64,000 nt of DNA from the IMG/VR virus record IMGVR_UViG_3300030047_000010; one strand, written 5' to 3'. The DNA is from a virus (lineage: Duplodnaviria > Heunggongvirae > Uroviricota > Caudoviricetes). A model generated the notes under the pieces. That model was given only the letters and a program-made list of their open reading frames with translations, searched no databases and was not told the origin of the DNA. Made by a program: the position numbers and the translations under genes. Shown here in pieces: positions 14,449-48,468 of the stretch; the stretch's first letter is position 1, and each line of letters opens with the position of its first letter.

Positions 14449-15522
14449 TTACCACGTCATATTAGGTAATTCTTGCTTAATAAGAGCTAGATTTTTATGA
14501 GCTATTTTCCATAGCTGTTCAGTTTTCGGCTTGCTCTCATGAAAAACAGATAAAGGCAACTTAGATCTGTAGAGCTTTACCAAATAATTGTATAAGGACT
14601 TGCTATAATTAGCCATCCAATCTTGAATAGCTTCCTGCTCTTTTGAATTTATAGCTTTACCCGAATAGGCACTTGCGGTAATCTTCAACAGCACTTGTGT
14701 TAAAGATATATCCAATGTAGGTCTAGGTATTTCTGTATCCCCAATTAAGGATACACCACCTTTATGAAAAGGCGTGAGTAACCCATAAAGCCAAGAGGAA
14801 AAAACAGCAGCCCCAGAACCAAATATCTCAGTTAAGATCCGTAGAGAGTTAGCTCTGTGCTCAGGCTCACCTTGGGTACCTATCGACTGAGCAACTAAAG
14901 CATGAATAACATCCTCAGCCGAGTGGCCTATTTCGGTGACACGCGCTCTAATCTCTGACGGGTCTTTATAATAGACCTCATGATCCTTGCTATAATCTGG
15001 ATGTGGATCACGCATAGACCAGTGGTTAGTTACAGAGTCAGCAGCATGCCGAACTTCATGACTCAGGACACTCTCCAAGTATGAGGACCTATGCACAGCT
15101 TCTTGGTAGGGTAAAGCTATGATCCCTGTAGTCCCAAATTTGGGTATCGCATCTAATGCTATCCTACGGAATAAAGCTTCGTACTCTTTATCGTAAGCTA
15201 ACGTTATAGGCCCCTCTGTAAATACCAAAGATATGTTACAAAGTAATTTATATAATGTATCTACCGCCTCAGGGCTTTCGTACTTAGGGAGTATTCTATC
15301 AAGCTGCTTAGGATCTGACCCTTTTGGATTTTTATTCAGCCTAAATATATACCAGAGAGGAACCGTAAACAGAGGATTAGATGGACACTGTGGATCAGAT
15401 GTTGAATGTCCCTTAATAATATAAGGAGTTTTTGACTCATGATGACTAGCCCACTCAATAATATGATCGCGAACAAACCGAATAGCACGGCTAACATCGT
15501 ATTCAGCTTGATCTGAAATCAC
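14449..15522 (-). CDS. zincin-like metallopeptidase
   Basis: LSHEVRHAAD (HExxH) plus downstream YYKDPSEIRAR (third-ligand Glu). Confidence 0.65.
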   Translation of the reverse strand: MISDQAEYDVSRAIRFVRDHIIEWASHHESKTPYIIKGHSTSDPQCPSNPLFTVPLWYIFRLNKNPKGSDPKQLDRILPKYESPEAVDTLYKLLCNISLVFTEGPITLAYDKEYEALFRRIALDAIPKFGTTGIIALPYQEAVHRSSYLESVLSHEVRHAADSVTNHWSMRDPHPDYSKDHEVYYKDPSEIRARVTEIGHSAEDVIHALVAQSIGTQGEPEHRANSLRILTEIFGSGAAVFSSWLYGLLTPFHKGGVSLIGDTEIPRPTLDISLTQVLLKITASAYSGKAINSKEQEAIQDWMANYSKSLYNYLVKLYRSKLPLSVFHESKPKTEQLWKIAHKNLALIKQELPNMTW

Positions 15523-16292
15523 TCTTCGGGTTCCTTCGTACCTTTAGGAAGCCCAAGAGCTACAATTTCGGTAGGCTTTCCATCATCCAAAGTAACAATA
15601 TGGGTATAACCCTCAGCCAGGAGCTTCTTTGTGAGCTCGGTACCTGTAGCACGATAAACGTCAGCAAGAACATGCTTCCAACTATCTGTATCACCATCAG
15701 AGTCGGAGCCCCAGTCAAGGACCAAAGGATTCTTGATCTCCATCTTTCCTGCACTCCACCCCTCAGGAACAGGAGCACCAGCATCACGTTCTAGCACATA
15801 AAAGCCAGAAGGCTCTACATCCTTTCCGAACCTTGAACCACCATAGGTGGAAGATGTATCGTTATGAATGTATTCAACAGTCACAGGCTTGCCTGTCTCA
15901 AAACGATCATTTTTTGCTAGATGATCATCAAGACCTTCTGAACCAGCCACAACAATAGCCGGGGTACCAGCACTTGCTAGAACAGATACAGCAGCAGCAG
16001 TAGCAACGGCGGCTTCCGCTTTTGCGTGCTTTTTCTTACCCTGACGAACAAATGTCTTGGCTAAGTTTATCTGTTTGATCCTGTGCGCATTTCCAGACTT
16101 CTCAGCCGACACATGCATTCTATCCAAAAGGGAAATTGAAAACTTCTCACCCTTCTCAAGACCAAAGTCTTTTTCAGCCCATTTACGCAAGCTACCGGGA
16201 TGCTTGACAGCCCCCTGCTCCCATTTTGGGTCTTTAGACTTTTTAGACTTTTTGCCTGAAGCAGTTACTTCATTAGGGTAAATCGTTATCAT
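15519..16292 (-). CDS. two-module protein: basic N-terminal domain plus ART-like C-terminal domain
   Basis: Start reassigned to ATG 16292 (GGAGG RBS); KWEQGAVKHPGSL basic module, then RFGKDVEPSGFY...KNPLVLDW...GYTHIVT resembling ART-like polyvalent domains. Confidence 0.45.
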   Translation of the reverse strand: MITIYPNEVTASGKKSKKSKDPKWEQGAVKHPGSLRKWAEKDFGLEKGEKFSISLLDRMHVSAEKSGNAHRIKQINLAKTFVRQGKKKHAKAEAAVATAAAVSVLASAGTPAIVVAGSEGLDDHLAKNDRFETGKPVTVEYIHNDTSSTYGGSRFGKDVEPSGFYVLERDAGAPVPEGWSAGKMEIKNPLVLDWGSDSDGDTDSWKHVLADVYRATGTELTKKLLAEGYTHIVTLDDGKPTEIVALGLPKGTKEPEE

Positions 16293-16366
16293 GCTAGCCT
16301 CCACGCAACGGTTAACTTGCGCATAAAGAAGTTGTTTATGAGAGGCAGACACTAAACATAGGATGT

Positions 16367-17389
16367 ATGATGTACTTCAGTGAAATCTTACCCAAACTAA
16401 ACAACGGCGAACTGTACCGTAGAGCCTCTTGGCCAAGAAATGACTTCATCTACTCTGTTCCAGGATCTACTTTCCCTGTCAACCGTAATCCGTTGTTGGG
16501 TATTTTTACAGAAGGTACTCAGATAAGCTATGCACCGCATATTGATTACTTGCATGTTGAAACAAATACAGCATCTGTCTGGACACCGACGCAAGAAGAT
16601 ATATTTGGACTGGATTGGACCAAAACATTCCTAGGAGGACAGACAGCGCTGCCGTTAGAAAAAGATAAAGCAGAACCAACAGTAATGCCTACATGGGAAA
16701 CAGGTACCGTATGGACACCCAACTATTCCGATTTGATCAGTACGGAAGAGCGAGATCGTGCTCGTACTGAAGCGGTCACAGGTTTGAAATGGTTGCACAA
16801 AAAGTGCTTTGCTGATCGTAACCCAGCATTAGCCGCTTTTCTATATGCTTTTGAGCATAATATGACAAGCTATAAGTCTAGAGTATTACAAGATGAGCAA
16901 TTCAGTAAAAGTCTCATCCCTGAGGTAACAAAGCACGCACTCTTTAGCCGTAATACCATAACCAAAAGCTTGCTGCTAAAAGTACCAAGTAACGTAGTTG
17001 ATGATCGTGAGGGCTCAATCAACTTATTTATATCCGGTTCCTTTAGCCTACTTTCGGGACTTGATCCAATTGACCAAAAATTCCTTCAAGCTGTTTTTGT
17101 GCGAACCTATGCGCTTACGTACTCACGCATAACAGCACATCTAGAGAAACTGCTTAACATCCGTATCCGAGCAGACAAATACCCGGAACCAACTAAGCCA
17201 GAAGAAGTCAAGTTAGAAGAACAAGATGCTATTGCAGAAACATCACCGTTCAAAGTAAATGTTGATGATTTCATTGAGCCTGTTGCAGGCGCACATCGGC
17301 CAGTAACATTGGATAACTGGAAAACCGCCGCACGCATAGTCAAGGATGAACTAGTCCAATTACACCAAGATCTCACGGTAGATGATTAA
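16367..17389 (+). CDS. DUF2829/Tad2-like domain protein with long C-terminal extension
   Basis: First ~85 aa (RRASW...PGSTFPVNRNPLLGIFTEGTQISYAPHID...WTPTQEDIFGLDW) match the DUF2829 pattern. Confidence 0.75.
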   Translation: MMYFSEILPKLNNGELYRRASWPRNDFIYSVPGSTFPVNRNPLLGIFTEGTQISYAPHIDYLHVETNTASVWTPTQEDIFGLDWTKTFLGGQTALPLEKDKAEPTVMPTWETGTVWTPNYSDLISTEERDRARTEAVTGLKWLHKKCFADRNPALAAFLYAFEHNMTSYKSRVLQDEQFSKSLIPEVTKHALFSRNTITKSLLLKVPSNVVDDREGSINLFISGSFSLLSGLDPIDQKFLQAVFVRTYALTYSRITAHLEKLLNIRIRADKYPEPTKPEEVKLEEQDAIAETSPFKVNVDDFIEPVAGAHRPVTLDNWKTAARIVKDELVQLHQDLTVDD

Positions 17390-17437
17390 ACTACGATTCA
17401 AACCGTAGGCTCCCATAACGATTACTTACTAAACTAG

Positions 17438-17472
17438 AAAACGCCGAGACCTTTTATAGATCTCGGCGTTTT
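17438..17472. terminator. bidirectional terminator
   Basis: 12-bp inverted repeat AAAACGCCGAGA/TCTCGGCGTTTT between convergent genes. Confidence 0.8.
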
Positions 17473-17486
17473 GTTATTAATCAATC

Positions 17487-18047
17487 TTACGCCTGAGCAG
17501 GAAACTTAACGCAGTTTTCTGGAGGAGCAACCTGCACGCCAACGCCGCGAAGGCTAACATAGCTGCGTTCCACGTCTTCCAGAGTAGAGAACCACTTGAT
17601 CTTGGGAACGCGAGACATGTGACTCGTAGCCGTAACCAACCAAGACTTATACCCAGGCTTGAACCTATACTGAAGCTGAAAATGCATCCCACGAGACTCA
17701 ACTTCCCAGATATTCTCGGAGATCTGCTTTACGGAATCAGCCAGCACAGACGCCTTCTTAGGCGCGGACTGCTCTACAACATTCTGCTCAGCACGAGCAC
17801 GAGCAGCCGTATACAACGGATGATCAGCAAACAGGGTCACACGGCCAGTATCAAAATAGTCCGTCATGATGTCGGTATCATTCTTGTAGTTATCCGGGAA
17901 TAACTTACCCAAATCCTGCCCGTAGTCCTTCTCGTACAGAGTAACACAGGGGCGCTTGTCACCACGATTGTCCAAGGAGTAGTACACCTTCACGCGGTTG
18001 GTTCCATCGGTGACAAAGAACTTCATAAACTTGATCGTCGTAGCCAT
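17487..18047 (-). CDS. hypothetical early protein
   Basis: 186-aa ORF behind a sigma70-type promoter and AAGGAG RBS. Confidence 0.65.
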   Translation of the reverse strand: MATTIKFMKFFVTDGTNRVKVYYSLDNRGDKRPCVTLYEKDYGQDLGKLFPDNYKNDTDIMTDYFDTGRVTLFADHPLYTAARARAEQNVVEQSAPKKASVLADSVKQISENIWEVESRGMHFQLQYRFKPGYKSWLVTATSHMSRVPKIKWFSTLEDVERSYVSLRGVGVQVAPPENCVKFPAQA

Positions 18048-18107
18048 TTGAGAACTCCTTGTTGGGGTGACAAGAACAAATATACATTAATTTTGTATCT
18101 TTGTCAA
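18048..18107 (-). promoter_or_regulatory. early promoter plus RBS module, copy 1
   Basis: TTGACA-N17-TATATT and AAGGAG; 59-bp near-identical copy at 19058-19116. Confidence 0.85.
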
Positions 18108-18159
18108 TAGATAGCATACAAAAAAGCACACCTAGTAACAAGTGTGCCTTCCATGCGCT

Positions 18160-18909
18160 CTATTCTTCAGGTGTACTGTTACAGACTAACCGTAACTCCT
18201 GAGGATGATCCGTCGGATACACAGACAGACTATATTCTTTACTTATGCGCCTAAGTTGTTGAAGCAGTACCTTACGCCACGCAGATGGAAGCTCCTGGTA
18301 TATATCTGCCAGAGATCTAGCTGGTATAGGACGAAAATTAAGTGTGACCGAAGCATCCGCTAGATTACAATAGGGCCGAGGACAGGAATCAGTCAAAGAA
18401 AACACAAGATCTGTTAGACTTGGTTTAGGTACAGACCTAAGGATAGCATCAATTTCACGCTTGTACCTATTAACAAGGCAAACAGCCACGCACACAGAAT
18501 CATTGTCTGTCACAGGTGGGGATGTTTTGCCTAAATCTGTTTTTATTAGGCACCCACGGCGTATGTTAGTAAGTTCAAACTTCCAAACATCACATGTTGC
18601 TGCCGGTAGATTACCGAAAACACCATAGAGAACTGTCAAAATTTGCTGGTTAAGATCTTCGTACTCTGGAGAGTACATCAGCACAGCATCTGAAAATGCT
18701 ATGTAAGCAGATTCACCGGGTGCTCGCTCAATAAACTCAGACGGTTTAGAATTTAACAAATCATAGATGTTAGCAATAAGTTCAGGCCATTCAAACATAG
18801 CTAGTTCCTTTTTACTATGAGGCACATGCTTCATATGGGAACTATTTACACGCAGACTTATCCAATAACATCGGATAGTTGGTGAAATTCTATCTTCTTC
18901 CGCTCGCAA
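18160..18909 (-). CDS. hypothetical protein (true start probably downstream of the annotated one)
   Basis: 249-aa ORF. Confidence 0.55.
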   Translation of the reverse strand: MRAEEDRISPTIRCYWISLRVNSSHMKHVPHSKKELAMFEWPELIANIYDLLNSKPSEFIERAPGESAYIAFSDAVLMYSPEYEDLNQQILTVLYGVFGNLPAATCDVWKFELTNIRRGCLIKTDLGKTSPPVTDNDSVCVAVCLVNRYKREIDAILRSVPKPSLTDLVFSLTDSCPRPYCNLADASVTLNFRPIPARSLADIYQELPSAWRKVLLQQLRRISKEYSLSVYPTDHPQELRLVCNSTPEE

Positions 18910-25417: not shown

Positions 25418-25774
25418 TCATGGGTTCTCCTTTAGGATCTTAGTCATAGTCTCGTTAAATTTACACAGCTTTTCATGCAATGCGATATCCAAATCAGACT
25501 TAGAAATTCCATAAAAGCGCATCATTTGATCAAACAGAATTAGACAATCAGCTAATTCTTCGGCAATGCCAGCATTTACAGTAACTCGTCCCCGCATACG
25601 CTTCATCAGCTCAATGGTTAATTCAGCAACTTCTTCGGAGAATTGATTTAGCTGACGTTGTATGCCTTCTTGCTGGAACAATTTAATATAGTGCTGCTGT
25701 GCCTCCTGAGCTAAAGTATAATTATCAAGTACGGCCGTATCCCAGGTTGTTAGCGCGGTCAGCAGAGAATGCAT
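25418..25774 (-). CDS. MazG-like nucleotide pyrophosphohydrolase
   Basis: QFSEEVAEL...IAEELADCLI (EExxE/EExxD). Confidence 0.75.
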   Translation of the reverse strand: MHSLLTALTTWDTAVLDNYTLAQEAQQHYIKLFQQEGIQRQLNQFSEEVAELTIELMKRMRGRVTVNAGIAEELADCLILFDQMMRFYGISKSDLDIALHEKLCKFNETMTKILKENP

Positions 25775-25789
25775 GTTGTGTCTCCTTAA

Positions 25790-26437
25790 CTAAGGAACAG
25801 TATTGTTAAAGAATTCAATGATCAAAACACCCATCTGATCGCGATTGCTGGTATATAGAAACATGTCTTTACAGGATATTCGGCTATGCCGAATAGTAGG
25901 TGATTCAAATACACGTTTCAACAGATGCTCAAAGTCTTGTACGTCTTTCTTATGTCGCATAGTTGCCTGCAAATCTGCCGTTACAGCGAGAAGAACTTGA
26001 CCATGGTACTTCAAGCTCTGCTGCACTAAACTAAAAATAGCCTGCAAATTGCTTAGAAGCTCCGGCCCAAAAGTAGATGTATACAAATCGTAAACGATGT
26101 ACCTAATTGGATCGCGATACTGTAGACAGAACTCACGCCAATCTTGACAGAAGAACTGAGCTTTTGGGAATTTAGTGCGGCACTGCTCGATGTTCTGACG
26201 TGATCCTGCAATATCCCTAGGGTTCTTGTCTAACCCAATCAGGCTAGCTTCATCTATACGCCCGGTTGCTAGTAATGAATCAAATGTTAAAGCACCTGCC
26301 CCAATGGGCTCAAGCCACTTACCATGGAAATCACCAAGAGAATGAATATCGAATTGGCCCTGAACATACTTGCGGTATTCCTGCTTGCCATGAGAAGCAT
26401 AAACAAACTCAGGTGACGTTGTCTTAGTCTTAGGCAT
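25790..26437 (-). CDS. putative class I SAM-dependent methyltransferase-fold protein
   Basis: WLEPIGAG (motif I-like), LIGLDKN, FFCQDW, YIVYDLY at Rossmann strand spacing. Confidence 0.5.
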   Translation of the reverse strand: MPKTKTTSPEFVYASHGKQEYRKYVQGQFDIHSLGDFHGKWLEPIGAGALTFDSLLATGRIDEASLIGLDKNPRDIAGSRQNIEQCRTKFPKAQFFCQDWREFCLQYRDPIRYIVYDLYTSTFGPELLSNLQAIFSLVQQSLKYHGQVLLAVTADLQATMRHKKDVQDFEHLLKRVFESPTIRHSRISCKDMFLYTSNRDQMGVLIIEFFNNTVP

Positions 26438-28602
26438 CCAAGACTTCTCCTATATGTAGTTCCTGTATGATACTAGCAGTGTGCTGAGAAGCAACTACAG
26501 TCATTTTGTCCTTATAGATTCTGTAGAATTTATAGGCGGACCTCTCTTCTAGATCAGAAGAAATCTGGGGTAGCCTTCCATGCGCCTTCACCCAAGATGC
26601 CAAAGGTACAAAACGCTGAAGAGTTAGCAAGGTACCATTGTTACAAACAAGAGGATCATTCCAGTTATCAGCAAAAATGCGACTAGACAACCCAGCAGCA
26701 TCTAACAGCGCACGAGCCTCTAAACTGGGACGTTTAACTGCGGGCAGCACCGTACTGAGCAGATTACGCAGCCGAAACTCTTCAAACGATGGGTAGTTGA
26801 TATGATCGTCACGACGAAGGCTACCCGTGCTGAAAGCCTGAACTAGACCGTCAGCTTTTTCCAGATCTGTCCTGTCTCTAAGTTTCTCCCAGCGATCAGA
26901 CCACTCGGTCAAAACGCGACTATCAATAGTTGTCACAAACTGATCTATTTCTTCATCAGCATACTGCTCTGCAAGCATATGAAGGTAAAAGTCGGCAATC
27001 TCAAATGACGGCGTACTTCCCGGCTTATGCTTTCCGCCTTTGTGATTTCGTGTACGCCGTTCAATGATAGACTCCATGTGCTCCAATAACTTATCAGGAT
27101 GATTCTTAAGCTGTTGATACATAGCCAATTTAACAACGTTTGAGTCCATTCCATACTGCTGAATTAGCTTAGGAAGAGTTACTCCTTGCTGAGTCTCATA
27201 GGCCAGCGTAACTTGAGCATCTAAGTCGGCAAGAGCCTCACACATAGTTGTTTCAGCGTCATCTTCCAAGGCATCCGCAAATTCAGCATAACTTTGTGCT
27301 AATTTAATATCACCTGAATTGTCTGCTTGCCGCCTGCGCATACGCAGTTCGCCGATCATAGCTTTGATTGGTGGCAGAGTAGCAGCAGCTAAAGGATTCT
27401 CTGTTCGGAGAATGTACTTTAGAACATCACAGGAAAATTCTATCAGGGCGCCAGCAGCCGAAGAAGTATGGAATATCTGTTTAGACTTAAATCTAAACTG
27501 CACAGGCAGATATCCTTCAGGTTTCTCGCGAAGAGTCCTACCCGGAATCTGAACGCTAAGAATAGAGGACTTCGGACGAACAAAGTATTGAATACAGGCT
27601 AGCCTGGGATCATCCACACCCTCACGGTATTTGCCTGTGGTTGGCGTGAATTGAATATCGTGATAGGTATCACCACGGCACTCTTTGGTGATAATATCTG
27701 TCTTAGAATCGCCCAGAGTATTCAACAAAGAAATATCTGTACGTGGCACAAGTTTGTAGCACTCGTCTATGATCTTATCGACGTATTCCTCCGTTGTACC
27801 GCAAGCCCGGCATGACGGTGTAGCAGGTACAACAACAAGACTCTTGACTCGATCATTTGCTAAAAACGTCTCAATCGTTTTACGTGCCACAAACTCAGGC
27901 GAAGGGAGTCCGTTCTCCATAGGCCAGATATCGCTATAGATGATCTCATTTTCCAGGCGAGGTGCAAAGCCTTCTTCAATATGCTGACTAAGCGGACGTA
28001 TACGAGACTTTGTCTTATTCTTTAAGATGAACTCCCACGAACCGGTAGATACAAACGGCGTTGCTGTCAGTAGCAGCATTCGAGCACCTTTATCTACAGC
28101 ACACTGTACGACACTCGTCAGGTTATTCAGCATTAAGGTGATGTGCTTCATCAACTACAATAAGTAAATCTGAGCAGTCGTCCAACTGCTCAAAAGCATG
28201 AGCATCTTCAGCTTTTGCGTTAGCCAAAGATGCGTGACATGCAATATAGGCACCCACACGATCTGTCTGCAGCATAGCTAGAAGAGCACCATCTGTTGTC
28301 TGAAAGTCTAGTGGCCGAACGCCACCGTTCTGAAGCCAGCTAAACGAGTCAGACGTATACGTTACGCCGTAGTCCCGATCACGTGCAAACCCAAAACGGA
28401 TTGCTATCAATGGTGTCAGTACCAGAATTTTCTTGATCCCTAGACTAGGACATTCCAGAGCAAACCGACTAATCAAATGGGCCTGCATAGACTTTCCTGC
28501 ACCCGGTGGCTGCCCAATCAACAAATGTGGACGCTGCGGATTAGCCAGTACATGGAAAGCCCACGTAAGTGTCTCTTCCTGATACTTGCGAAGCTTTTTC
28601 AC
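26430..28602 (-). CDS. SF2 DExH helicase (Res/RadD-like) with helicase-associated C-terminal domain, split by a +1 frameshift at ~28125
   Basis: ORF 28123-28617: LRKYQ, GQPPGAGKS (Walker A), IVVDEAHH (Walker B). ORF 26430-28154 continues with LLLTATP (III), REGVDDP (V), QIPGRTLR (VI) and LASWVKAHGRLP (HA-like). Confidence 0.85.
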
Positions 28603-28603
28603 T

Positions 28604-30520
28604 TTAATCAACAGCAATCCCCTGGCCAGAAGTCAACGCAGCCTTTCGCAGTAACTTAGCTTGCTTACGGGCTTCTTTCTGAGTTAATGCTTCACCAAAT
28701 CTGCGTAAAGCATCCGTTCCTGACTTAGCTCCAAGAACAAGTTTTGGGTGATCAAACGGAATATACAGTAGACGGGTAGGTGCATTAGCAACAACATCAT
28801 CACACATTGTAGCACCAGTAGAAATAACATGACCGCAGCTACAGGTGTGCAGAGGATCATAGTCAGAAGAGACCACGATCACGTTCTTCTGCATAGTAGC
28901 AGCAGACGCAACAAGCATGCTACGCAATGTTCCAGCAGCTAGCTGATGTGTGAACCTGTTGATATTGCGCCGTCGGATAGCGCAGCCACGCCATCTGCGA
29001 GGCTTCTTATCTTTGTCCTTCTCCCCATCTTTCTTTGTCTTTGCCTTTGCCTTGAAACCTTCGTTCAAAGGAATATCTTGAATGACAAATGTAGTTGCTT
29101 CTGATGCTACCCAGGAATGCACAATGTGCCGTCTTAAGTTTGTCAGTATACCAGCACTACGAGCATGCAACATAGATAGCTCAAACTTGGCTTTACGATG
29201 ATTCTTAGATTTCATCCTCACGGAGAACCCACAAGAACACTTAAAAGTGTTAAGATCAGCAACAGCTTCGTCTGAGGCAACTGCGCCACAAATAGGACAA
29301 ACGTGTGTAGTCTTGAACGTCTGGCTAGCTCGCTTATGCAGCTCATACTTACGAGAAACCTCACGCTGCTTCATGACAATAGCGTTTTGATTCTTTTCAT
29401 ACTTCTTAGCCAGAGCGGCACAATTAGGATAGCTAGTTACAGAACGAAGAGCATCAAGACTCCGCATCATCCGGAATCCGGTACTAGTTGTAATAGCGGC
29501 TGGACGAAAATCAAGTGCCATAGTTTTATTAATGTCAACAGGATACAACACAGGACTATGGTTGGTATCAATAGTAATACTAGTCCACCAACGCCCAGTA
29601 CCATCAACTGCTACAGTAATCTGTTGACCTACGGACATCCCAATAACACGCCTAGCTGAGATAGCCTGTGTAATTTCTTTGGCTGATCCCGTGAGAATGT
29701 CAACATAAGCACAAAATTGAACAGTAAGTGCAGGGGTAATCTTAAGATTACCTAGTTTACCATTGATAAATGCGGAAGGTTTCTGCGCCTCTAAAATAAA
29801 GCTAGAGGTACGAGATCTGAAATTCGGGAAGTTCTCTACCTTTTGAACAGATTCCGGATCTGTGTACGTAACAATGTGTGTTTTAGTAGATTCACGTCTA
29901 CGAGAAACAAGAAAGTTGCCGTCTTTCTTAGAAAGACGATCTGACGTGTAAATGCTTTTCTGTGCTTGGCTAAGGCGTTTGGCTACTGTCGAATTAAATG
30001 TAGTCGCTGGAATTCCCAAACTTGCGTCATAAGCAGGGTGTGACTTATTCAAGCGCCGAATAGCACCAGCAAGAACAGTCATGTCCTCTCTAGAGAGACG
30101 TGGCCAGATCTTTTTCTCATATTCTGTGCGCATTTTTGCTAAACCTAAAACAAACGTATCATGTTTGCCACGCATCTTCTCTAGGCTATCCAGAATCTTA
30201 TTTTGTTTACATTGTGTGCCTGGCCGTTTTTGCAGCTCTTCCAACTCCAAAGTAAGAATAGCTTGTTTCTTCTCAGTATCACTAAGAAGAGCCAGTACGC
30301 GATGCTCTAGCCACACGTCAATGTCACCCATATCAAACAGCATCTTATCCGTAAACAACCATTCAAGCGCATCATTGTACATGCACCGAGTTGCCCAAAG
30401 AAAAGTAAACAACTTGTCTCTCTGATCTTTTGTTGGATACAGCTCAAACTTATAGGACTTAGTCGTTCGCACATCACCCGGAGCAGCGCCCAAGATTGGA
30501 GTCTTTTTGCGAATAGCCAA
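28604..30520 (-). CDS. TnpB/Cas12f-like RNA-guided effector with degenerate RuvC
   Basis: N-terminal KSYKFELYPT...ATRCMYNDAL (IS605 OrfB/TnpB-type); RuvC-I MALDFR; RuvC-II FVIQDI; TCSCGH; adjacent to CRISPR array; TTG start with GGAGA RBS. Confidence 0.85.
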   Translation of the reverse strand: MAIRKKTPILGAAPGDVRTTKSYKFELYPTKDQRDKLFTFLWATRCMYNDALEWLFTDKMLFDMGDIDVWLEHRVLALLSDTEKKQAILTLELEELQKRPGTQCKQNKILDSLEKMRGKHDTFVLGLAKMRTEYEKKIWPRLSREDMTVLAGAIRRLNKSHPAYDASLGIPATTFNSTVAKRLSQAQKSIYTSDRLSKKDGNFLVSRRRESTKTHIVTYTDPESVQKVENFPNFRSRTSSFILEAQKPSAFINGKLGNLKITPALTVQFCAYVDILTGSAKEITQAISARRVIGMSVGQQITVAVDGTGRWWTSITIDTNHSPVLYPVDINKTMALDFRPAAITTSTGFRMMRSLDALRSVTSYPNCAALAKKYEKNQNAIVMKQREVSRKYELHKRASQTFKTTHVCPICGAVASDEAVADLNTFKCSCGFSVRMKSKNHRKAKFELSMLHARSAGILTNLRRHIVHSWVASEATTFVIQDIPLNEGFKAKAKTKKDGEKDKDKKPRRWRGCAIRRRNINRFTHQLAAGTLRSMLVASAATMQKNVIVVSSDYDPLHTCSCGHVISTGATMCDDVVANAPTRLLYIPFDHPKLVLGAKSGTDALRRFGEALTQKEARKQAKLLRKAALTSGQGIAVD

Positions 30521-30546
30521 CGTTCATCTCCAAGTTCAAATAGGGT

Positions 30547-30594
30547 AAAACAAAAAGATCCCTGCCTAGGTTTTATTTCGCACCTAGGCAGGGA
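30547..30594 (-). terminator. intrinsic terminator
   Basis: 12-bp perfect stem TCCCTGCCTAGG/CCTAGGCAGGGA (30559-30594) followed on the minus strand by TCTTTTTGTTTT. Confidence 0.8.
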
Positions 30595-30730
30595 CTTGTG
30601 TGTGAATTTGGCAGCCGTTTCGCTAGGTTACCCTAGCAGCGAAGCCCTCCAGTGAGTTCTTCTTCGGACTGTTAACGAGGACCTGAAATACCCCCCGGCA
30701 TTGATTTAGAGTCGCTGTGCTCGACTTGTA
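30548..30730 (-). ncRNA. candidate tracrRNA/scaffold RNA (~180 nt)
   Basis: Own promoter, GNRA-capped hairpin (30622-30637), 10-nt anti-repeat (30599-30608), terminator; no ORF. Confidence 0.6.
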
Positions 30731-30736
30731 GAACAA

Positions 30737-30764
30737 AATATAGTTCAAAAAATTTGTTTGTCAA
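30737..30764 (-). promoter_or_regulatory. sigma70-type promoter for the candidate tracrRNA
   Basis: TTGACA-N16-TATATT on the minus strand. Confidence 0.7.
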
Positions 30765-30815
30765 GCTTAAATTTTAGTCAAATACAAAATCACGGCGACT
30801 GCCCAATGGTACAAG

Positions 30816-31360
30816 GTTTCAATTCACACATGGGTACAAGCTCCTGGATGTCAATCCAGATATGCGAACTGTAAGAGTTTCAATCCACACAGGGGTACAA
30901 AGTACTACCCAAATTTCTCCGCCAACTAATCTGCCGCCATGTTTCAATTCACACATGGGTACAAAATGCTACTCTGGCCAAAGCCTCTCGCACGACCTAG
31001 CGTTGTTTCAAGTCACACAGGGATGCAAAGTGCTACTTGTCAGGAATTGTCGGAGCGGCTGTCGAGAAGTTTCAATTCACACATGGGTACAAAATGCTAC
31101 GGGCGATCCAACGTCGTTAAGCCTGTCAGCGAGTTTCAATTCACACATGGGTACAAAGTGCTACCCATTAGCTAATGCCTTATTAAGACAATACCTCGTT
31201 TCAATTCACACATGGGTACAAAGTGCTACGAAGGAGCTTGGGTGGGATCGAGGGTATACTCGGTTTCAATTCACACATGGGTACAAAGTGCTACCCGCCT
31301 CAAGCTGTCGGCATGCATGGTCATACTTGTTTCAATTCACACATGGGTACAAAGTGCTAC
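30816..31360 (-). CRISPR. CRISPR array, 9 repeats and 8 spacers
   Basis: 32-nt repeat GTAGCACTTTGTACCCATGTGTGAATTGAAAC (minus sense) at + starts 30816, 30877, 30941, 31005, 31069, 31133, 31198, 31263, 31329; spacers 32-34 nt (about 29 nt next to the eroded terminal repeat); degeneracy increases leftwards. Confidence 0.97.
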
Positions 31361-31434
31361 CGCACTAGGTACAAACACACACTGTCAAAGAGCGAACAGG
31401 AGGTAATTCGCTAACCAACTGCTTCGTATTACGA

Positions 31435-31462
31435 AATATACAAGCAAAGCCAAAAATGTCAA
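31435..31462 (-). promoter_or_regulatory. CRISPR leader promoter
   Basis: TTGACA-N16-TATATT on the minus strand, ~75 nt upstream of the first perfect repeat. Confidence 0.65.
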
Positions 31463-31520
31463 GATAAACTCAAAAATTTCCAAAAATAGTCATCGCTAAC
31501 CTACCGGCATTGACGTGGAA

Positions 31521-31988
31521 CTACAGGTTAGCGATCCCCGAGATCCCCCGCAGTACACTAGTCCAGTCTGGGTACTGCAACGAACCGAAGTTTAGGAGAT
31601 ACCCATGGAACTCGGTCTGCTTATTAGAGTCGCATTTATCATCCACAAGAATGTCCCCGCGTAACAAGCTTTTGTCGTGAGCAATTATTAGGTCTGTACA
31701 AGCATCAAAGCCGAAGTGACGCTCTATGCTCATCCGCTTTTCTGTGTAGCACATGGGATTACGCACAGATGGAGCAGTTAAGAACAAGACACGGTGGCCT
31801 TGCTCTCTAAGAGTGTCATAAGCCTGTAGCGCTCCAGTGATCGGTCGAAGTCCCAGAAAGAATCCTATCTGTGACTGAGGAAAGGGTTGTGCCGGATTAT
31901 CCTCTAGAGCTTGACGGTAGGCCCCTGTAAAGTCAAACAGAGTATCATCCATGTCTATATAGATGGTCAGATATTTTGGCATATGCAT
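31521..31988 (-). CDS. 5'(3')-deoxyribonucleotidase (NT5C-like HAD)
   Basis: IYIDMDDTLFDF, FLTAP, DKSLLRGDILVDD. Confidence 0.85.
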   Translation of the reverse strand: MHMPKYLTIYIDMDDTLFDFTGAYRQALEDNPAQPFPQSQIGFFLGLRPITGALQAYDTLREQGHRVLFLTAPSVRNPMCYTEKRMSIERHFGFDACTDLIIAHDKSLLRGDILVDDKCDSNKQTEFHGYLLNFGSLQYPDWTSVLRGISGIANL

Positions 31989-37187: not shown

Positions 37188-40115
37188 TTAAGGCAGGAAG
37201 ATACCGTAAGTCGCGGCTGCATTAAGAACACCTTCAAACCCAACGTTGGAATCAATACCACGAGCCGAGTCATACCGGAGAACACGGTTGTATGCACCAA
37301 AAGCACGCTGAGTACGAATGCCCAAACTACCCACACCAGAACGCTGACGGCTAATCATAATCTTTTGTGGAGTAATATGTGCATTCAACCACTCGCTCAA
37401 ACGCTGAATAGCAGAGTCAATTGCACCTGTCTGATCATAATCTAGCGTGACGGCTTGGCCAGAGTTATGGGTAACAAATCCATTAGCATAGAAGTGGTGT
37501 GCTAAGTCCGTATCACGATCTGGAAGAGTAGGGTCTATAACGCATTCTTCTGTTTCCAGTGTATCTATACTGTGTACAGATTCCCACTGAAAGTCAAGAT
37601 CAGCTAAATACTTAAGTTTCTTTAGAACGTCAGGCTTTAACTTAGCTAACAACTCTGTACGCTGTTCTAAATAGAATAATAGATTTTTCTGTGTAGGACA
37701 CCGGCTATCAAAAATAGCTTGAGTTGCGTTCAAAGTCAAACCAGAATACACTCTAAACTTTTTACCTGTTTCTGAATCTGTATGCCAACCCTTATTAGCT
37801 CCGGAAAAAAGAGACTTAATATAAGTACCAACAAACTCAGGGTATGCTTCTACTTGCTCATAGTAACGAACACGCGGCTTATGATCTCTACCCTTATACC
37901 AAAAACCTATGGTATCTGCATAGATATCAATAGCAGAACTTGGTACATGTATTTGCGGAACTTGTGCTGACGCATATCTATGCTTAGATGTAATAATCCC
38001 AAATCTAAGCAGCAGGCTTTGAAATTGATCTAGCATCTTTGTACTAGAGGATGCAAAGCTCATAAAAGTTTTACCTTTTTGCTTAGACGTATCATATGAT
38101 GTATAAGACCCATCTCCCTCAAAAAAGGCTTGAATAAATTCACGAGCTAACCTACGAGGTGCTGCCATGATAGACCACGGAATTTCTTTGTCAGGTGCCT
38201 GCTTAAATTGCTCTCCGCACCCAATCAAAAACATGGCTATTTTACGATTTGATTCTTCGTAGTAGTGTACTTTATTTCCAGCACTACTTATCTGAAATCC
38301 TTTATACTTCGGAGCAACACCAAAGCATTCCGTGAAGTTTTTAACGTAGTCATCTAATAAAATTTGATTTATATTACAGAAAGATATAATCCCCTCAGTA
38401 TTTATATAGCCCTCACTCGTAATGTAGCCGAGTACCCGAGCTAAGGCAGGAGTCATTTTTCTGGGAAGTTCGTAATTTTTAGCACCTTTAATTGTGTATC
38501 TATTAACAGCATCCACCAAAAACGATAAATCAATATCCCAATCCTCGTCAGCACTGTCATGACGCTTAGATATAGCGACAACATCACCCACAGAGATATC
38601 GGCTAAGTTCTTGTTTTGTACATTAAGTTCTTTATCTAAAACTAATACCGGGTGATTTCCTGTTGCTTTCAAAGAGTACCCGTGCGCTGTTTCTAATCTA
38701 TAGACAGGCTTTGCACCAAGGTCCCAAACACAAGTAGGAACATCTCTACCATAAGGTGTAAGCAGCTTAAATTTTGTGTCAAACTTAGCATTTGTGCTGA
38801 TTATGGTATTTGCAAGAAGAGTTTCATTAATAAATGTAAACAAAGCATCTGAACAATCAATTAAGATACGACGCCACTCATCATGAGTGGCAAACTGAGA
38901 TAACTCATAGTTGGAAAACATGCTCAAAATTGAATTACTTGCTACTTCCGGTGCTGTAGAAGCAACTAATTCAGATAACCCTAATTTCTGGTCTTTTATG
39001 TCAGAAGAATTAGCTATAATACCAGTAAGAACAGCTTCTCTATCTGGGTGAAAAGCAATAGATGCTACTAGTTTTAGAACATCATGCTCCAGGGCACCTG
39101 GCCGCAAATACTTAGCTTGCACAAGACCCCGATTTGTAGACACATAAGTATCCTCAGTGACACAGAAAGAAAATGCGAGCTGTGATTGGAGCATATGTTG
39201 AGAATTCAGCATCCACCAAGTAGAAAGCATAATCCAGTATGTAGAGCACTGCATAGGAAAGTCAGTCCAGTTGTAGTTAGATACAGGGAACCAACCGTTA
39301 AACAGGCCCAAGCCCTCCGTAAGAGCCTCGCAGAGATCTCCATCACTAATATGCTGAGGGGTACCTAACCTATGCTGGAATCTATCCACCATGAAACGAA
39401 TAGACTGTATGTACTGAACCATCTGCTTCTTGATGACACGAAACTGATCATACTCCACTTGGAGTTCAGATACAGATGTCTCACGAACAGACCACAGACC
39501 AGTATACAGATTGTTCAAAGGATCCCATAAAGTAAACGCAGATGAGGGGATCTCATAATAGTAAACTATACTATCACCATCTATCACTTTAGTCAGAGCT
39601 GATTTATTTAGAGCAGCAGCATGTGGAATTGGGGCTAGATCAGAGTTATCTGCGTAGGGAGAGGCATAACACTCCAATGTAATCTCCGCCGGATCAAAAT
39701 CACCACGCCAAAACAAACGATGAGGTGATCCTTGAATAGCTAAGTTTACAACATCTTTACGACCTGTAGCTGTTACCTGCTTGTCTACAACAAAGAAATC
39801 AAAGGTATGTGTTAATTGAGAACGGCGCGCCGTAACAAAGTTTACTTGTAACTGCCAGGACATCTCATCATTAGATAACTCACTATCTTGAGGAATTGTC
39901 CATAAAACACGATATTGCCCAGGAGTGCCATAAGCTTGAGCTGTCCCTGTCTGTATCTGAAGACCCGATGGGGATACAAAAGCATAATTCGGATATTTAT
40001 TAGCATCCAAAGGAACTAAAGCATCACCGGAAGAGTTAACAAAAGAGAAACGGAACTCGGCCTGCTCCCCACGTTGCCATGTTTGGCGAACTCTAGATGA
40101 ATTAGCGTCAGTCAT
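37188..40115 (-). CDS. putative virion structural (neck/adaptor-like) protein containing an intein
   Basis: 975 aa; ~408-aa extein with beta-rich N-terminus; TAACTTCT-N4-ATG upstream motif; structural role inferred. Confidence 0.75.
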   Translation of the reverse strand: MTDANSSRVRQTWQRGEQAEFRFSFVNSSGDALVPLDANKYPNYAFVSPSGLQIQTGTAQAYGTPGQYRVLWTIPQDSELSNDEMSWQLQVNFVTARRSQLTHTFDFFVVDKQVTATGRKDVVNLAIQGSPHRLFWRGDFDPAEITLECYASPYADNSDLAPIPHAAALNKSALTKVIDGDSIVYYYEIPSSAFTLWDPLNNLYTGLWSVRETSVSELQVEYDQFRVIKKQMVQYIQSIRFMVDRFQHRLGTPQHISDGDLCEALTEGLGLFNGWFPVSNYNWTDFPMQCSTYWIMLSTWWMLNSQHMLQSQLAFSFCVTEDTYVSTNRGLVQAKYLRPGALEHDVLKLVASIAFHPDREAVLTGIIANSSDIKDQKLGLSELVASTAPEVASNSILSMFSNYELSQFATHDEWRRILIDCSDALFTFINETLLANTIISTNAKFDTKFKLLTPYGRDVPTCVWDLGAKPVYRLETAHGYSLKATGNHPVLVLDKELNVQNKNLADISVGDVVAISKRHDSADEDWDIDLSFLVDAVNRYTIKGAKNYELPRKMTPALARVLGYITSEGYINTEGIISFCNINQILLDDYVKNFTECFGVAPKYKGFQISSAGNKVHYYEESNRKIAMFLIGCGEQFKQAPDKEIPWSIMAAPRRLAREFIQAFFEGDGSYTSYDTSKQKGKTFMSFASSSTKMLDQFQSLLLRFGIITSKHRYASAQVPQIHVPSSAIDIYADTIGFWYKGRDHKPRVRYYEQVEAYPEFVGTYIKSLFSGANKGWHTDSETGKKFRVYSGLTLNATQAIFDSRCPTQKNLLFYLEQRTELLAKLKPDVLKKLKYLADLDFQWESVHSIDTLETEECVIDPTLPDRDTDLAHHFYANGFVTHNSGQAVTLDYDQTGAIDSAIQRLSEWLNAHITPQKIMISRQRSGVGSLGIRTQRAFGAYNRVLRYDSARGIDSNVGFEGVLNAAATYGIFLP
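37464..39164 (-). mobile_element. intein with LAGLIDADG homing endonuclease (567 aa)
   Basis: Block A CVTEDTYV, block B TGNHP, LAGLIDADG motifs LGYITSEG and QAFFEGDGS, terminal FYANGFVTHN followed by Ser. Confidence 0.92.
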
Positions 40116-40124: not shown

Positions 40125-41588
40125 TTACCGGACTTTGGCTTTCCACTCACGCATAAAATATTGTCGATTTTTAATGGAGCAGGTACGAAAATCAGAAGAC
40201 TGTATAAAACCTATATAAGCTATCTGTAAGATATCTGGGGGCAATTCAAGATGCACTGCCCAAGGAAAGTAGTGTTCTATTTTCTTAATATTGTCTGTGG
40301 TAATAGCAAATTTAGTCAAACTTGGAATAGATGTATGTTTGTTAATTGATGCTTTCAGCTTAACACAGATACTTATGATCCAATCTAACTCCTGAGTAAC
40401 TACACGCTCAAAATCAAAATCAGAAGATACCCCGTCTTTAATGCTATCTATGCTTAGTTTTATATATAAAGTAGTATTATGTAAATGAATACTACTGTTG
40501 TTATTTGTACTTAATTTGAAGTCTCCTCTACTGGGAGTCTCCTTAGTTCCAAATAGAATTAAACGACCACCATCAGATGACCAGAGATCCAACGTAGGAT
40601 ATTCTGCGTCTATATCGTCAGGTATTAAATCCTGCGGCTTAACCACCTCAGAGTCTTTCGGGTTGTACTCGTTAAGCATCCGTTTAACAGCTAGTATGTA
40701 TTGAGCCTGATATGCAGTTGGCGATAAAGAGATCACAAGACAACGAGCAAGGTGTTTAACAATATTTACAAGTGTTGTAGTACTCTGTGCTAAATAGTTA
40801 CCACCCATACCACGAACTTCAACTAGATTATTTTTAATTTTAGATAAACTTATGTTTTGGTAATGATCTATTGGGATTAACCTACGACGCAGCCTAGGAT
40901 CTAATAAAACTTTAGCTAAGTTCGCATCAGTCGCCTTAGGACCTGTCCGGCTAGTTTCTTTATCATATTGTGTTCGTGACCAGGGTGAGATAATAGACGT
41001 ACCAACTCTAGTAACGTCATCTCGGAACATCTCTTCGTGTAACTCATACAATATCTCTTTTGACGTATTTAAGGAAAAACCGTTATCCGTTCTACCAAAA
41101 CGAGCTAATAACTTATCCTCCTGCAAGAATACACCGAACTTAAGAGGATTAAAATATGTTAAATTTGCTGTAATCTTCGGATGACCAAAGGTAACATGCA
41201 AGCCACAACTATCATTTGTTTCACACTTAAGCGCCTTGAGTAAAGAAAATACAGATTCAAGTATTTTTGATACTTGGGATAATTTCAATACAGGAGAAAT
41301 AAGCTCTATCCCAAATTCATTAGGAGAAGCGTCAATAGAACCGTCCCCTGTTATATTCCAAGAATTATACATAGCAGCACCAAGTTGCTCATGAGCATTG
41401 TAAATACTGGAAATCACACCAATTTTCCAACTTGGGTACTTTTTACTTAAAGCTTGTGCAAACTTTTTGTGACTAATAGGAGATATGAATTCAAATTCAA
41501 AACCAACAGTAAGTCTAGATATGTTAACATCACTAAAATCTAGACCAGGAACTACTGCGGCGGTAGTTTCAAAAGGAATAAACATCAC
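40125..41588 (-). CDS. Amidoligase_2 (COOH-NH2 ligase type 2) family protein, paralog 1
   Basis: VGFEFEF, WNITGDGSI, IELISP, TNDSCGLHVT, VEVR. Confidence 0.85.
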   Translation of the reverse strand: MMFIPFETTAAVVPGLDFSDVNISRLTVGFEFEFISPISHKKFAQALSKKYPSWKIGVISSIYNAHEQLGAAMYNSWNITGDGSIDASPNEFGIELISPVLKLSQVSKILESVFSLLKALKCETNDSCGLHVTFGHPKITANLTYFNPLKFGVFLQEDKLLARFGRTDNGFSLNTSKEILYELHEEMFRDDVTRVGTSIISPWSRTQYDKETSRTGPKATDANLAKVLLDPRLRRRLIPIDHYQNISLSKIKNNLVEVRGMGGNYLAQSTTTLVNIVKHLARCLVISLSPTAYQAQYILAVKRMLNEYNPKDSEVVKPQDLIPDDIDAEYPTLDLWSSDGGRLILFGTKETPSRGDFKLSTNNNSSIHLHNTTLYIKLSIDSIKDGVSSDFDFERVVTQELDWIISICVKLKASINKHTSIPSLTKFAITTDNIKKIEHYFPWAVHLELPPDILQIAYIGFIQSSDFRTCSIKNRQYFMREWKAKVR

Positions 41589-42601
41589 TCATCCCCGTCG
41601 GACTTAGCAGGTGTCCACATAGGCTTCTTAGGTGCTTTGTACACAGGCATCATTCTACGGACGGCTGCAACATACTGCGGAACATAAGCCGTAGGCATCA
41701 GAGCGATAGCCACGCAGCGGGCCATGTGAAGTACTCGTCCTGTAAGCTCTTTGACTGAAACATTCAAATAATCGCCGCCCATGCCCCGAATCTCTACACG
41801 ATGCTTAGACAAGTATTGTAAGCTGATATTAGTATAATGATCCACCATAGCCATGCGCTTACGGAAAGCCGGACTTACTAGTATCTGAGCTAAATTAGCA
41901 TCAGTTAATTTCGGACCTGTTTTATCAGTCGTGGGTATGGATGTTGGTGTATGATCAAAGACATTCAATCCTTTTAGTGTAGTAACTTGATCCCCAGACG
42001 ATCCTATCTCAGTATTGATCGCTTGAACAATACGCTTAGATAAATTATCAGCAAATGCATTATCCGTTCTACCGAATCTAGATAACAAATTATCCTCTCT
42101 GAGAAAAATACCAAGTTTCAACGGATCAAACTTTGTTAACGCAGAATTAATGTCGGGGTGGCCGAATGTAACGTGCAAACCGCAACTCTCGTTAGTTTTA
42201 CCACCAGTAGATTTAATCAAGGAAAAAACACGTGTAAGAATATCACCAACTTGATTCAACTGAAGTACAGGAGAGATCAACTCAATACTATAATGAGGTG
42301 TCAAGGATAGAAGGTCTTCAGCATCTTCCTGAACAGTCTCATCACTAGTTACATTCCAAACAGAGTATTTCTCAACGTCCTTCACATTCTTAGGAAGTCC
42401 GTGCTTATCTTGAACAGTGCCAATCTTCCAGGTAGGTTGAGCAAGCTGAAGAGACTTAGCAAATGATTTATGTGATAACCGAGATACAAATTCAAACTCA
42501 AAACCAACAGTCAACTTAGACAAGTCAACCTGAGAAAGGTCCAACTTTGGGACAACAGCAGCGACTGCACTATCCTGTGCAGTATGATTAGGAATGAACA
42601 T
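41585..42601 (-). CDS. Amidoligase_2 family protein, paralog 2
   Basis: VGFEFEF, WNVTSD, IELISP, TNESCGLHVT, VEIR. Confidence 0.85.
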   Translation of the reverse strand: MFIPNHTAQDSAVAAVVPKLDLSQVDLSKLTVGFEFEFVSRLSHKSFAKSLQLAQPTWKIGTVQDKHGLPKNVKDVEKYSVWNVTSDETVQEDAEDLLSLTPHYSIELISPVLQLNQVGDILTRVFSLIKSTGGKTNESCGLHVTFGHPDINSALTKFDPLKLGIFLREDNLLSRFGRTDNAFADNLSKRIVQAINTEIGSSGDQVTTLKGLNVFDHTPTSIPTTDKTGPKLTDANLAQILVSPAFRKRMAMVDHYTNISLQYLSKHRVEIRGMGGDYLNVSVKELTGRVLHMARCVAIALMPTAYVPQYVAAVRRMMPVYKAPKKPMWTPAKSDGDE

Positions 42602-42628
42602 CTAGCACCCCATCAGATAAAACGTACC

Positions 42629-43081: not shown

Positions 43082-43135
43082 AAAAACCTCCGGACTACAT
43101 CCAGAGGTTCACACGCAGAGCAGCTTAAAGGCAGA

Positions 43136-43909: not shown

Positions 43910-43942
43910 TTACTATGTTGATAATATTGGTAATGTCCAGAA

Positions 43943-45412: not shown

Positions 45413-45470
45413 ACTCAGAAGTTATCTTTTTGATTGACTAAACGAGCACTCTTCCCTATATTCAGTATGT

Positions 45471-48420: not shown

Positions 48421-48468
48421 ACAGACAATAATAACTAAAAGTCGTATGCCTGTCAAGGCGGTTTTCTA

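Follow-up and report, generated by a model that had tools for sequence, protein, structure and literature searches.

A phage-borne, type V-like CRISPR locus with a nuclease-dead TnpB-derived effector and an adjoining helicase and methyltransferase-fold gene

Organisation of the locus

The 64,000-nucleotide (nt) stretch analysed here, referred to throughout as the window, belongs to IMG/VR virus record IMGVR_UViG_3300030047_000010, a 375,537-bp genome with direct terminal repeats that is rated complete and represents a huge phage whose DNA is present in peat metagenomes. On the minus strand of the window (31462 -> 25790) lies a clustered regularly interspaced short palindromic repeat (CRISPR) array, followed by a structured RNA resembling a trans-activating CRISPR RNA (tracrRNA), a TnpB-derived effector gene, a helicase of superfamily 2 (SF2) and a gene for a protein with a methyltransferase fold. 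We class this type V-like CRISPR system, which is carried by a phage and has no adaptation genes, as a variant of type V. Its features, in the order in which they are read, are as follows (protein lengths in amino acids, aa).

31492..31535, minus strand: hairpin element, inverted repeat ATCGCTAACC ... GGTTAGCGAT, upstream of the leader promoter, read in the sequence
31435..31462, minus strand: leader promoter, TTGACA, 16-nt spacer, TATATT, 11/12 consensus matches
30816..31360, minus strand: CRISPR array of 9 repeats (32 nt) and 8 spacers (29-34 nt), the sole array in the 375-kb genome
30803..30815, minus strand: conserved element CTTGTACCATTGG, directly 3' of the last repeat
30737..30764, minus strand: promoter of the tracr-like RNA, TTGACA, 16-nt spacer, TATATT, 11/12 consensus matches
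30548..30730, minus strand: tracr-like RNA, recognised by its fold z score, a five-locus alignment and the anti-repeat in homologous loci
28604..30520, minus strand: effector, 638 aa, TnpB/Cas12 fold, from sequence and fold matches
28123..28602, minus strand: N-terminal helicase fragment with Walker A PPGAGKS and DEAHH, stopping at TAA 28125-28123
26430..28154, minus strand: C-terminal helicase fragment with motifs III (TATP), V (EGVDDP) and VI (QIPGRTLR), and a helical C-terminal region with one W..H.R.P repeat
25790..26437, minus strand: protein of 215 aa, class I methyltransferase (Rossmann) fold, its gene overlapping the helicase stop by 8 nt

Most of this layout had been claimed in a preliminary description made from the sequence alone, and the leader promoter with its nine-repeat array, the 638-aa TnpB-derived protein with a broken RuvC site, and the 8-nt overlap between the methyltransferase-fold gene and the helicase stop were all confirmed. 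The reported lack of cas1, cas2 and cas4 was found to extend beyond the window, since Pfam models of Cas1, Cas2 and Cas4 gave no match in the whole 375,537-bp genome (a Cas6 search was not made). Two claims required amendment: the separately promoted structured RNA stood, its anti-repeat being upheld by homologous loci and not by the energy of the duplex in the window, and the helicase was found to begin at GTG 28602 as described, 1 nt after the effector stop, but not to be a single gene. No second copy of the effector was found in the phage genome.

The nuclease-dead effector

The effector open reading frame (ORF; 30520-28604), which is preceded by a GGAG ribosome-binding site, encodes a protein for which Pfam returned HTH_OrfB_IS605 (6e-8) together with a Cas12f1-like TNB match below threshold, and to which PHROGs attach the label transposase. 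Comparison of the family profile with the Protein Data Bank (PDB) gave TnpB at E = 1e-17 to 1e-11, TranC at ~1e-8, Cas12f at ~1e-7 and Cas12m2 at 0.002, and the top 50 Foldseek matches of an AlphaFold model with a mean predicted local distance difference test (pLDDT) score of 70 were all Cas12m, TnpB, Cas12f, Cas12p, TranC, CasLambda, Cas12n, Cas12h or Fanzor, with Cas12m first. Profile and Foldseek matches alike thus identify a single type V effector with the TnpB/Cas12 RuvC fold. Against NCBIfam guided_TnpB the window protein scored 26 bits (cut-off 100), while both it and its nuclease-intact relatives fell below the cut-offs of the Cas12f2 model (24-38 bits, cut-off 450) and the C2c8 (V-U2) model (15-50 bits, cut-off 350).

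Alignment of the catalytic motifs indicated that the RuvC-I aspartate is kept (ALDF), that the RuvC-II glutamate is replaced by glutamine (VIQDIP) and that the RuvC-III aspartate is replaced by valine, giving D/Q/V in place of the intact D-E-D triad, with H/Q/L at the same positions in the relative P0004. Among the aligned dead members, RuvC-II carries glutamine in five, lysine in one and threonine in one, RuvC-I is histidine in two, and the RuvC-III aspartate is lost with no conserved acid in its place; none of the three positions is constant within the dead clade, and in two members every catalytic residue is gone. The nuclease-intact relatives P0008, P0024 and the protein encoded at locus L022 keep D/E/D. 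Comparison of the window effector with the 75%-identical P0003 gave nonsynonymous and synonymous divergences (pN and pS) of 0.15 and 0.73 respectively, and the resultant dN/dS ratio of ~0.06 indicates that the nuclease-dead protein is maintained by purifying selection. Because the RuvC site has been lost, the effector is proposed to bind DNA under RNA guidance without cutting it.

An additional zinc ribbon, CxxC...CxC, is inserted into the helix that follows RuvC-I, and the canonical TNB zinc finger shows partial erosion. The inserted ribbon (P0004 residues 384-420; approximately 400-433 in the window effector) gave a sub-threshold match to the Lar family of restriction-alleviation proteins (2e-5, 24.8 bits, cut-off 39.6); neither the nuclease-intact relatives nor P0009 possess it.

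The tracr-like RNA

The tracr-like RNA (~185 nt, about 30730-30548) lies between the array and the effector gene and has its own promoter. When a sigma-70-like consensus of 12 positions was scanned across 25600-31700 (6.1 kb), this promoter and the leader promoter were the top two matches, each scoring 11/12 on the minus strand. The RNA region folded better than all 200 of 200 shuffled sequences (z = -3.9), and its 3' end comprises a strong long hairpin (stem 30593-30560) followed by a U-tract, the combination constituting a terminator.

The anti-repeat in the window, AATTCACACA (30608-30599), is the exact complement of the TGTGTGAATT portion of the repeat. The corresponding repeat/anti-repeat duplex (-19.5 kcal/mol) was equalled by 80 of 300 shuffled repeats and is not significant by energy alone, and the reading of this sequence as an anti-repeat depends instead on the homologous loci, which carry an anti-repeat at the same position of the tracr-like RNA, either perfect over 22 nt or matching at 19/21. 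The perfect 22-nt version, in locus L009, gave -46.4 kcal/mol and was equalled by none of 300 shuffled repeats, and the anti-repeat of L018 gave -34.3 kcal/mol and was equalled by one of 300. A rough estimate placed the chance expectation of a 10-nt exact complement at the homologous position at ~0.004.

A core common to the window, L009, L018, L015 and L022 has the form ...TGCCGGGG-N4-TTTCAG-N2-CCTCGT.AACA ... GACGGCTGC.AAA, with the anti-repeat next. RNAalifold analysis of the five-locus alignment gave 22 consensus pairs, of which 10 have compensatory changes, for example CAGC/GCTG in three loci versus CATC/GATG in two. The feature that marks tracrRNA-dependent class 2 systems, a separate RNA whose anti-repeat tracks the local repeat, is thus present, strongly so in L009 and L018 and over 10 nt in the window, and on these sequence grounds the tracr-like RNA appears to be separately transcribed.

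Array, leader and spacers

The repeat consensus, read on the minus strand, starts GTAGCAC and finishes ATTGAAAC, an ending that is also known from repeats of class 1 systems. The four repeats nearest the leader are identical and the distal repeats are degenerate. No second CRISPR array was found in the 375-kb genome. The spacers have a guanine-plus-cytosine (GC) content of 0.51, compared with 0.39-0.48 in 2-kb windows along the stretch, and this excess over the surrounding phage DNA hints that their targets may be foreign. Read in the sense of the CRISPR RNA (crRNA), the 8 window spacers (30848-31328) contain GACA 6 times against 0.78 expected, a comparison that is post hoc inasmuch as GACA was the commonest 4-mer; the 27 spacers of related loci contain it 6 times against 2.7 expected (P = 0.05), at variable positions within the spacers.

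Around the leader promoter, the hairpin and an extra GGTTAGCGAT copy recur in L012 (6860-6905 and 6978-6990) and L015 (14970-15012 and 15080-15092), and in the window a third GGTTAGCGA copy lies at 31416-31407, 3' of the promoter. The leader hairpin could be an operator or a leader element. The hairpin ATCGCTAACC ... GGTTAGCGAT with a downstream GGTTAGCGA(T/A) copy was thus observed at three divergent loci, nuclease-dead and nuclease-intact alike.

A second conserved element, CT(A/T)GTACCATTG(G/A), 12-13 nt in length, lies directly 3' of a repeat at three nuclease-dead loci (window 30815-30803; L018 346-358; L009 872-884), following the final repeat in the window and L018 and belonging to the third unit from the array end in L009. 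No further match to it was found in the phage genome, and it could be either a conserved short guide or the relic of a repeat. The 16 repeats of the L009 array (1-1003) differ at many central positions, chiefly by transitions, with the 3' GGATTGAAAC handle constant; from its sequence, this array looks like one in which homogenisation by acquisition has ceased.

The helicase

The helicase occupies two ORFs (28617/28602-28123 and 28154-26430) as the result of a frameshift immediately after DEAHH. In four homologues the interval from DEAHH to the G-A/K-R motif is 17 codons, compared with 49 nt in the window, a difference that denotes a 2-nt deletion whereby the TAA at 28125-28123 was created. A check of this site in assembled contigs found those of three peat sequencing runs (18, 28 and 92x coverage), and the Joint Genome Institute (JGI) contig, to be identical at the deletion. 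The downstream frame of 574 codons is free of stops and keeps motifs III-VI, and its ATG at 28133 precedes the upstream stop by 8 nt; between them, the two ORFs of the window retain every helicase motif intact. The split may be a recent event, or the protein may be produced in two pieces. A programmed +1 frameshift at GAA-TAA-C is an unlikely alternative, as the P-site tRNA would re-pair poorly and the spacing in the four homologues implies a 2-nt deletion.

The P0012 helicase matched ResIII (9e-15), and intact relatives have ResIII and DEAD domains with all SF2 motifs: motifs I, Ia, II (DEAH), III, V and VI and two RecA-like domains could be aligned in all members. Pfam gave just ResIII and DEAD, with neither the HD nuclease and core of Cas3 nor the XPD/DinG-type iron-sulphur (Fe-S) features of CasDinG, and a Cas3 profile match in the PDB was not significant (E = 0.096). 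A structural model (pLDDT 66, with the C-terminal third poorly predicted) placed the core nearest to RadD, ISWI/Chd1/Snf2, XPB, RapA, Mfd and the motors of type ISP restriction enzymes, and not to Cas3 or DinG. The helical C-terminus of the operon helicase contains one W..H.R.P repeat, of which effector-free versions of the helicase contain several, and which we take to resemble the 'helicase-associated' repeat. Prediction of a complex between the full P0004 effector and P0012 residues 390-713 gave a score of 0.00 with the partner poorly folded, and speaks neither for nor against binding.

The methyltransferase-fold protein

The gene that overlaps the helicase stop (26437-25790) is intact and encodes 215 aa. 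Its family has eleven known members, all metagenomic, in which W41, E43, P44, G46, D70, W100, Y113, D117, T120-S-T122, D155 and R161 are invariant, E43 to G46 forming E43-P-x-G46; no GxGxG motif was found in the family alignment. Methyltransf_31 matched below threshold in two of the eleven (best E = 0.0017), and the best PDB profile match of the family was a methyltransferase, weakly (E = 0.14). The ESM Atlas model of P0002 has a Rossmann-like methyltransferase fold, with template modelling (TM) scores of 0.60-0.65 to class I rRNA/tRNA methyltransferase clusters and 0.74-0.75 to clusters of viral hypothetical proteins. A class I methyltransferase fold is supported by this model, and methyltransferase activity is putative. 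Searches for relatives of the protein in IMG/VR and in GenBank phages returned none.

Relatives and conservation of the operon

An exhaustive HMMER pass over 1.84 billion protein representatives indicated that the effector family is rare, yielding 9 proteins. Word-indexed homologue searches with the effector alone or with a profile returned just itself and one fragment, GenBank phages contained generic TnpBs at <=29% identity alone, and divergence within the effector alignment precluded a pattern scan. In IMG/VR nothing matched the tracr core pattern; its use in a scan of JGI metagenomes led to one further, nuclease-intact locus, L022.

The full layout of array, tracr-like RNA, effector, helicase and methyltransferase-fold gene was found in the window, L009, L012/L013 and L018/L019, at 28-36% effector identity, and in all four lineages the operon junctions abut or overlap. 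In L009 (effector P0004, 32% identity) an array of at least 16 repeats and a tracr-like RNA accompany the effector gene, a helicase of 713 aa that overlaps it by 20 nt, and a protein of 221 aa. L012/L013 (P0009, 28% identity) combines an array of 6 repeats and a tracr-like RNA with the effector, a helicase of 731 aa and a protein of 220 aa, and in L018/L019 the array is decaying and the effector is called as three pieces, alongside a tracr-like RNA, a helicase of 705 aa and a protein of 224 aa. In L012 a 104-aa ORF of no known family (7439-7753), also present in L013, lies between the array and the tracr promoter.

The nuclease-intact relatives are of 494-504 aa, pass NCBIfam guided_TnpB at 164-177 bits, and represent TnpB captured separately by a CRISPR array. 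In L015 the gene for P0024 is accompanied by an array of 6 repeats and a tracr-like RNA, and a PIF1 helicase follows it; the protein of L022 likewise has an array and a tracr-like RNA; and the 9 kb of L014, the contig of P0008, include no helicase, nor was an array found upstream of P0008. The array adjoins the effector gene, as is required of type V, in the window, L009, L012, L015, L018 and L022, and array, tracr-like RNA and effector are kept together in these six loci. Adjacency of the operon helicase coincides with loss of the nuclease, the intact relatives not adjoining the helicase/methyltransferase-fold pair. L015 was observed to contain an effector-free helicase/methyltransferase-fold pair and, 6 kb away, a nuclease-intact array/tracr/effector unit with a PIF1-type helicase (6320-9645 and 15136-18512). 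A maximum-likelihood tree supported a core dead clade (98/97) and an intact clade (94/93), P0009 and P0007 forming long unresolved branches.

Comparison with known systems

By sequence and fold, the nearest systems are TnpB of IS200/IS605 elements and the CRISPR-associated TnpB derivatives of the 'V-U' type (Altae-Tran et al. 2023, PMC10691335), to which the nuclease-intact relatives correspond in passing guided_TnpB and in carrying an array and a tracr-like RNA. Unlike TnpB, the locus lies outside any transposon context and has an array guide and a separate tracr-like RNA in place of omega RNA, and the window branch has lost the catalytic residues, gained insertions in the REC region and a zinc ribbon, and falls below the family cut-off. 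Small size, a TnpB-like architecture and a tracrRNA that has a 3' anti-repeat and is encoded in the interval from array to gene are shared with Cas12f (V-F), from which the effector differs in its low Cas12f2 scores, in PDB matches weaker than those to TnpB and in its dead RuvC.

An inactivated RuvC, the lack of adaptation genes and residence on mobile elements are common to this locus and to the transcription-blocking, nuclease-deficient binders Cas12m (V-M) and TldR, Cas12m being also the top Foldseek match. However, Cas12m has no tracrRNA and TldR no array (PMC11656645, PMC10705468), neither is linked to a helicase, and the profile match to Cas12m2 is at E = 0.002; where TldR has no array and an omega-type guide at the 3' end of its gene, the present effector gene has an array and a tracr-like RNA upstream. 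The dCas12f-sigmaE system (PMC12259090) is alike in having a dead Cas12-type binder genetically linked to a partner, there delivered to DNA, and differs in that the partner is a sigma factor of the extracytoplasmic function (ECF) group, one fused RNA serves as the guide and Bacteroidetes are the hosts. It performs RNA-guided transcription, and no helicase is mentioned for it. Cas12r of Thermus phages is an active nuclease and tracr-less.

The pairing of an RNA-guided binder with an SF2 helicase has parallels in type IV-A (CasDinG), in type I (Cas3) and in a Cas3-linked variant of Cas12h (PMC10691335), and type IV-A resembles the locus further in having neither nuclease nor adaptation genes and in residing on mobile elements (PMC11656645). 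The binders of types I and IV-A are, however, multi-subunit class 1 complexes, Cas12h is active, and the present helicase, which lacks an HD domain, is unlike DinG/XPD.

The 2025 CRISPR classification lists V-C, V-M and the predicted V-O and V-P as inactivated type V subtypes that block transcription, and in covering class 2 accessory proteins names no helicase partner for type V (PMC12669027). A census of TnpB and Cas12 proteins gives a helicase link for the Cas12h variant with Cas3 only, and includes several unnamed inactivated V-U branches (PMC10691335), and a review of CRISPR in mobile elements treats helicases for types I and IV alone (PMC11656645). The combination of array, tracr-like RNA, dead effector, helicase and methyltransferase-fold gene was, as the preliminary description had supposed, found in no account within the searchable type V literature, though an earlier mention elsewhere is possible.

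Proposed function and its alternatives

Nuclease-dead class 2 effectors act, to our knowledge, either as lone roadblocks (Cas12m, Cas12c, TldR) or by delivering a transposase (Cas12k) or a sigma factor (dCas12f). The best reading of the present locus, held at a probability of roughly 0.55, is of a guide-directed, non-cutting binder that, we infer, is coupled to or recruits a helicase motor and a methyltransferase-fold partner. The array would be transcribed from the leader promoter and the tracr-like RNA from its own; the latter would pair with the repeats, with processing presumably by host RNase III; the 638-aa protein would then take the guide to complementary DNA and bind it without cutting; and binding would place or license the motor and its modification partner on selected DNA, belonging either to the host or to a competing element, with silencing, unwinding or modification as the presumed output. 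Such a mechanism would resemble Cascade bringing Cas3 or CasDinG, or dCas12f bringing a sigma factor. In the window phage itself, with its split helicase, the system may serve as a plain roadblock or may operate with a two-piece helicase. A bolder version, in which the locus would be the class 2 counterpart of Cascade-Cas3 or Cascade-DinG, a crRNA:tracrRNA-guided dead TnpB-type protein loading an SF2 motor and a methyltransferase at chosen sites so that the DNA of a host or rival is remodelled or methylated in a naturally RNA-programmed way, is offered tentatively and considered doubtful.

The preliminary description had suggested an RNA-guided module that recruits a helicase, and had held that this idea would fail if effector homologues generally had neither arrays nor the helicase. 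Examination of homologue neighbourhoods indicated otherwise, since array and helicase recur in divergent dead relatives, and a genuine CRISPR locus, a dead effector and a recurrent operon all speak for the suggestion, which is at the same time weakened by the effector-free pair and the split helicase.

These and several further observations weigh against coupling. In L015-L017 (helicase of 894 aa) and L021 (helicase of 1135 aa) no effector gene precedes the helicase/methyltransferase-fold pair; the pair has a function of its own, and its adjacency to the effector could be synteny inherited in one phage lineage. L011, a 2.4-kb contig, has a shortened dead effector followed directly by the methyltransferase-fold gene, with no helicase between. 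The operon phages are related, sharing for example a 975-aa intein-bearing protein, and independent events are accordingly few; with few informative loci, and a tree in which one core dead clade is supported and two long branches stay unplaced, there may have been one or two. In the window phage the 2-nt deletion is fixed in the population (18-92x assemblies) and no other helicase copy was found in the genome, and the anti-repeat is just 10 nt long. The profile and structure comparison asked for in the preliminary description confirmed membership of the TnpB/Cas12 family, with the effector closer to TnpB than to Cas12f, and a relocated catalytic residue, as occurs in some TnpB clades (PMC10691335), is possible on sequence grounds.

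Protospacer searches likewise gave nothing in favour: none was found in the phage's own genome at <=8 mismatches, within any of the fetched loci, in PLSDB plasmids, in IMG/VR with 20-22-nt seeds of spacers 1, 2, 4 and 5, or in GTDB genomes with a seed of spacer 6, and GenBank phages yielded a single 23-nt chance match (E = 0.1). As the searches were empty for every spacer, neither a target nor a protospacer-adjacent motif (PAM) is established.

The effector-free pairs, the helicase-less L011 and the purifying selection on a window effector whose neighbouring helicase is frameshifted would all be expected if the protein were simply an RNA-guided roadblock like Cas12m or TldR, repressing or blocking target DNA by itself, with the helicase and methyltransferase-fold genes an unrelated phage module on the same transcript. 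This is a real if lesser prospect, against which stand the tight or overlapping junctions preserved in four lineages whose effectors have diverged to 28-36% identity, and the fact that helicase adjacency accompanies nuclease loss whereas intact relatives do not adjoin the pair. It is improbable that the locus of the window phage is a decaying relic, with a helicase pseudogene, an anti-repeat eroded to 10 nt and nothing functional: the deletion after DEAHH, a duplex energy no better than chance, degenerate distal repeats and the failure to find targets are what decay would produce, but an effector dN/dS of 0.06, four identical leader-proximal repeats, two near-consensus promoters, a stop-free 574-codon helicase frame in a gene that retains all motifs, and an intact methyltransferase-fold gene are not.

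Very improbable, finally, are the related proposals that the array is a hijacker mini-array serving host Cas proteins, or that the effector remains a nuclease by way of a rearranged active site. The class 1 occurrence of repeats with the ATTGAAAC ending would suit a hijacker, yet six loci keep the array, the tracr-like RNA and the effector together, and an anti-repeat that tracks the local repeat speaks against service to host Cas proteins. For a surviving nuclease there are the RuvC rearrangements with relocated residues documented in TnpB clades (PMC10691335) and an acidic residue after the RuvC-II glutamine in most members; that +1 acidic residue is, however, also present in canonical TnpB and hence denotes no relocation, and the variation of all three catalytic positions, with two members having lost all of them, tells the same way.

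Were the coupling of binder, SF2 motor and methyltransferase-fold protein true, the operon would represent a new output for RNA-guided systems, helicase recruitment would have arisen in class 2 as in types I and IV, and huge phages would be seen to use CRISPR parts without adaptation genes. The ~500-aa nuclease-intact relatives with no adjacent motor and the dead relatives with one provide a natural comparison by which the evolutionary switch is testable, and the compact parts (about 600 + 710 + 220 aa) might, if the coupling is real, furnish a programmable tool for unwinding or modification.

Other features of the window

Nearly all large ORFs of the window lie on the minus strand, a tRNA scan of the window found none, and an Rfam scan of it found no family. 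No DNA relatives of the phage were found in GenBank phages, and the sequencing runs that matched phage DNA included no RNA run. A protein of ~975 aa, which contains intein-splicing and LAGLIDADG domains and matches a PHROG head-tail connector, is encoded at window 37188-40115, L009 6596-9535 and L018 6179-9106, on different sides of the CRISPR operon, which indicates that the phages are related but rearranged. Several further large ORFs occupy window 40125-52890, one of which (46042-48456) has a PHROG amidoligase match.

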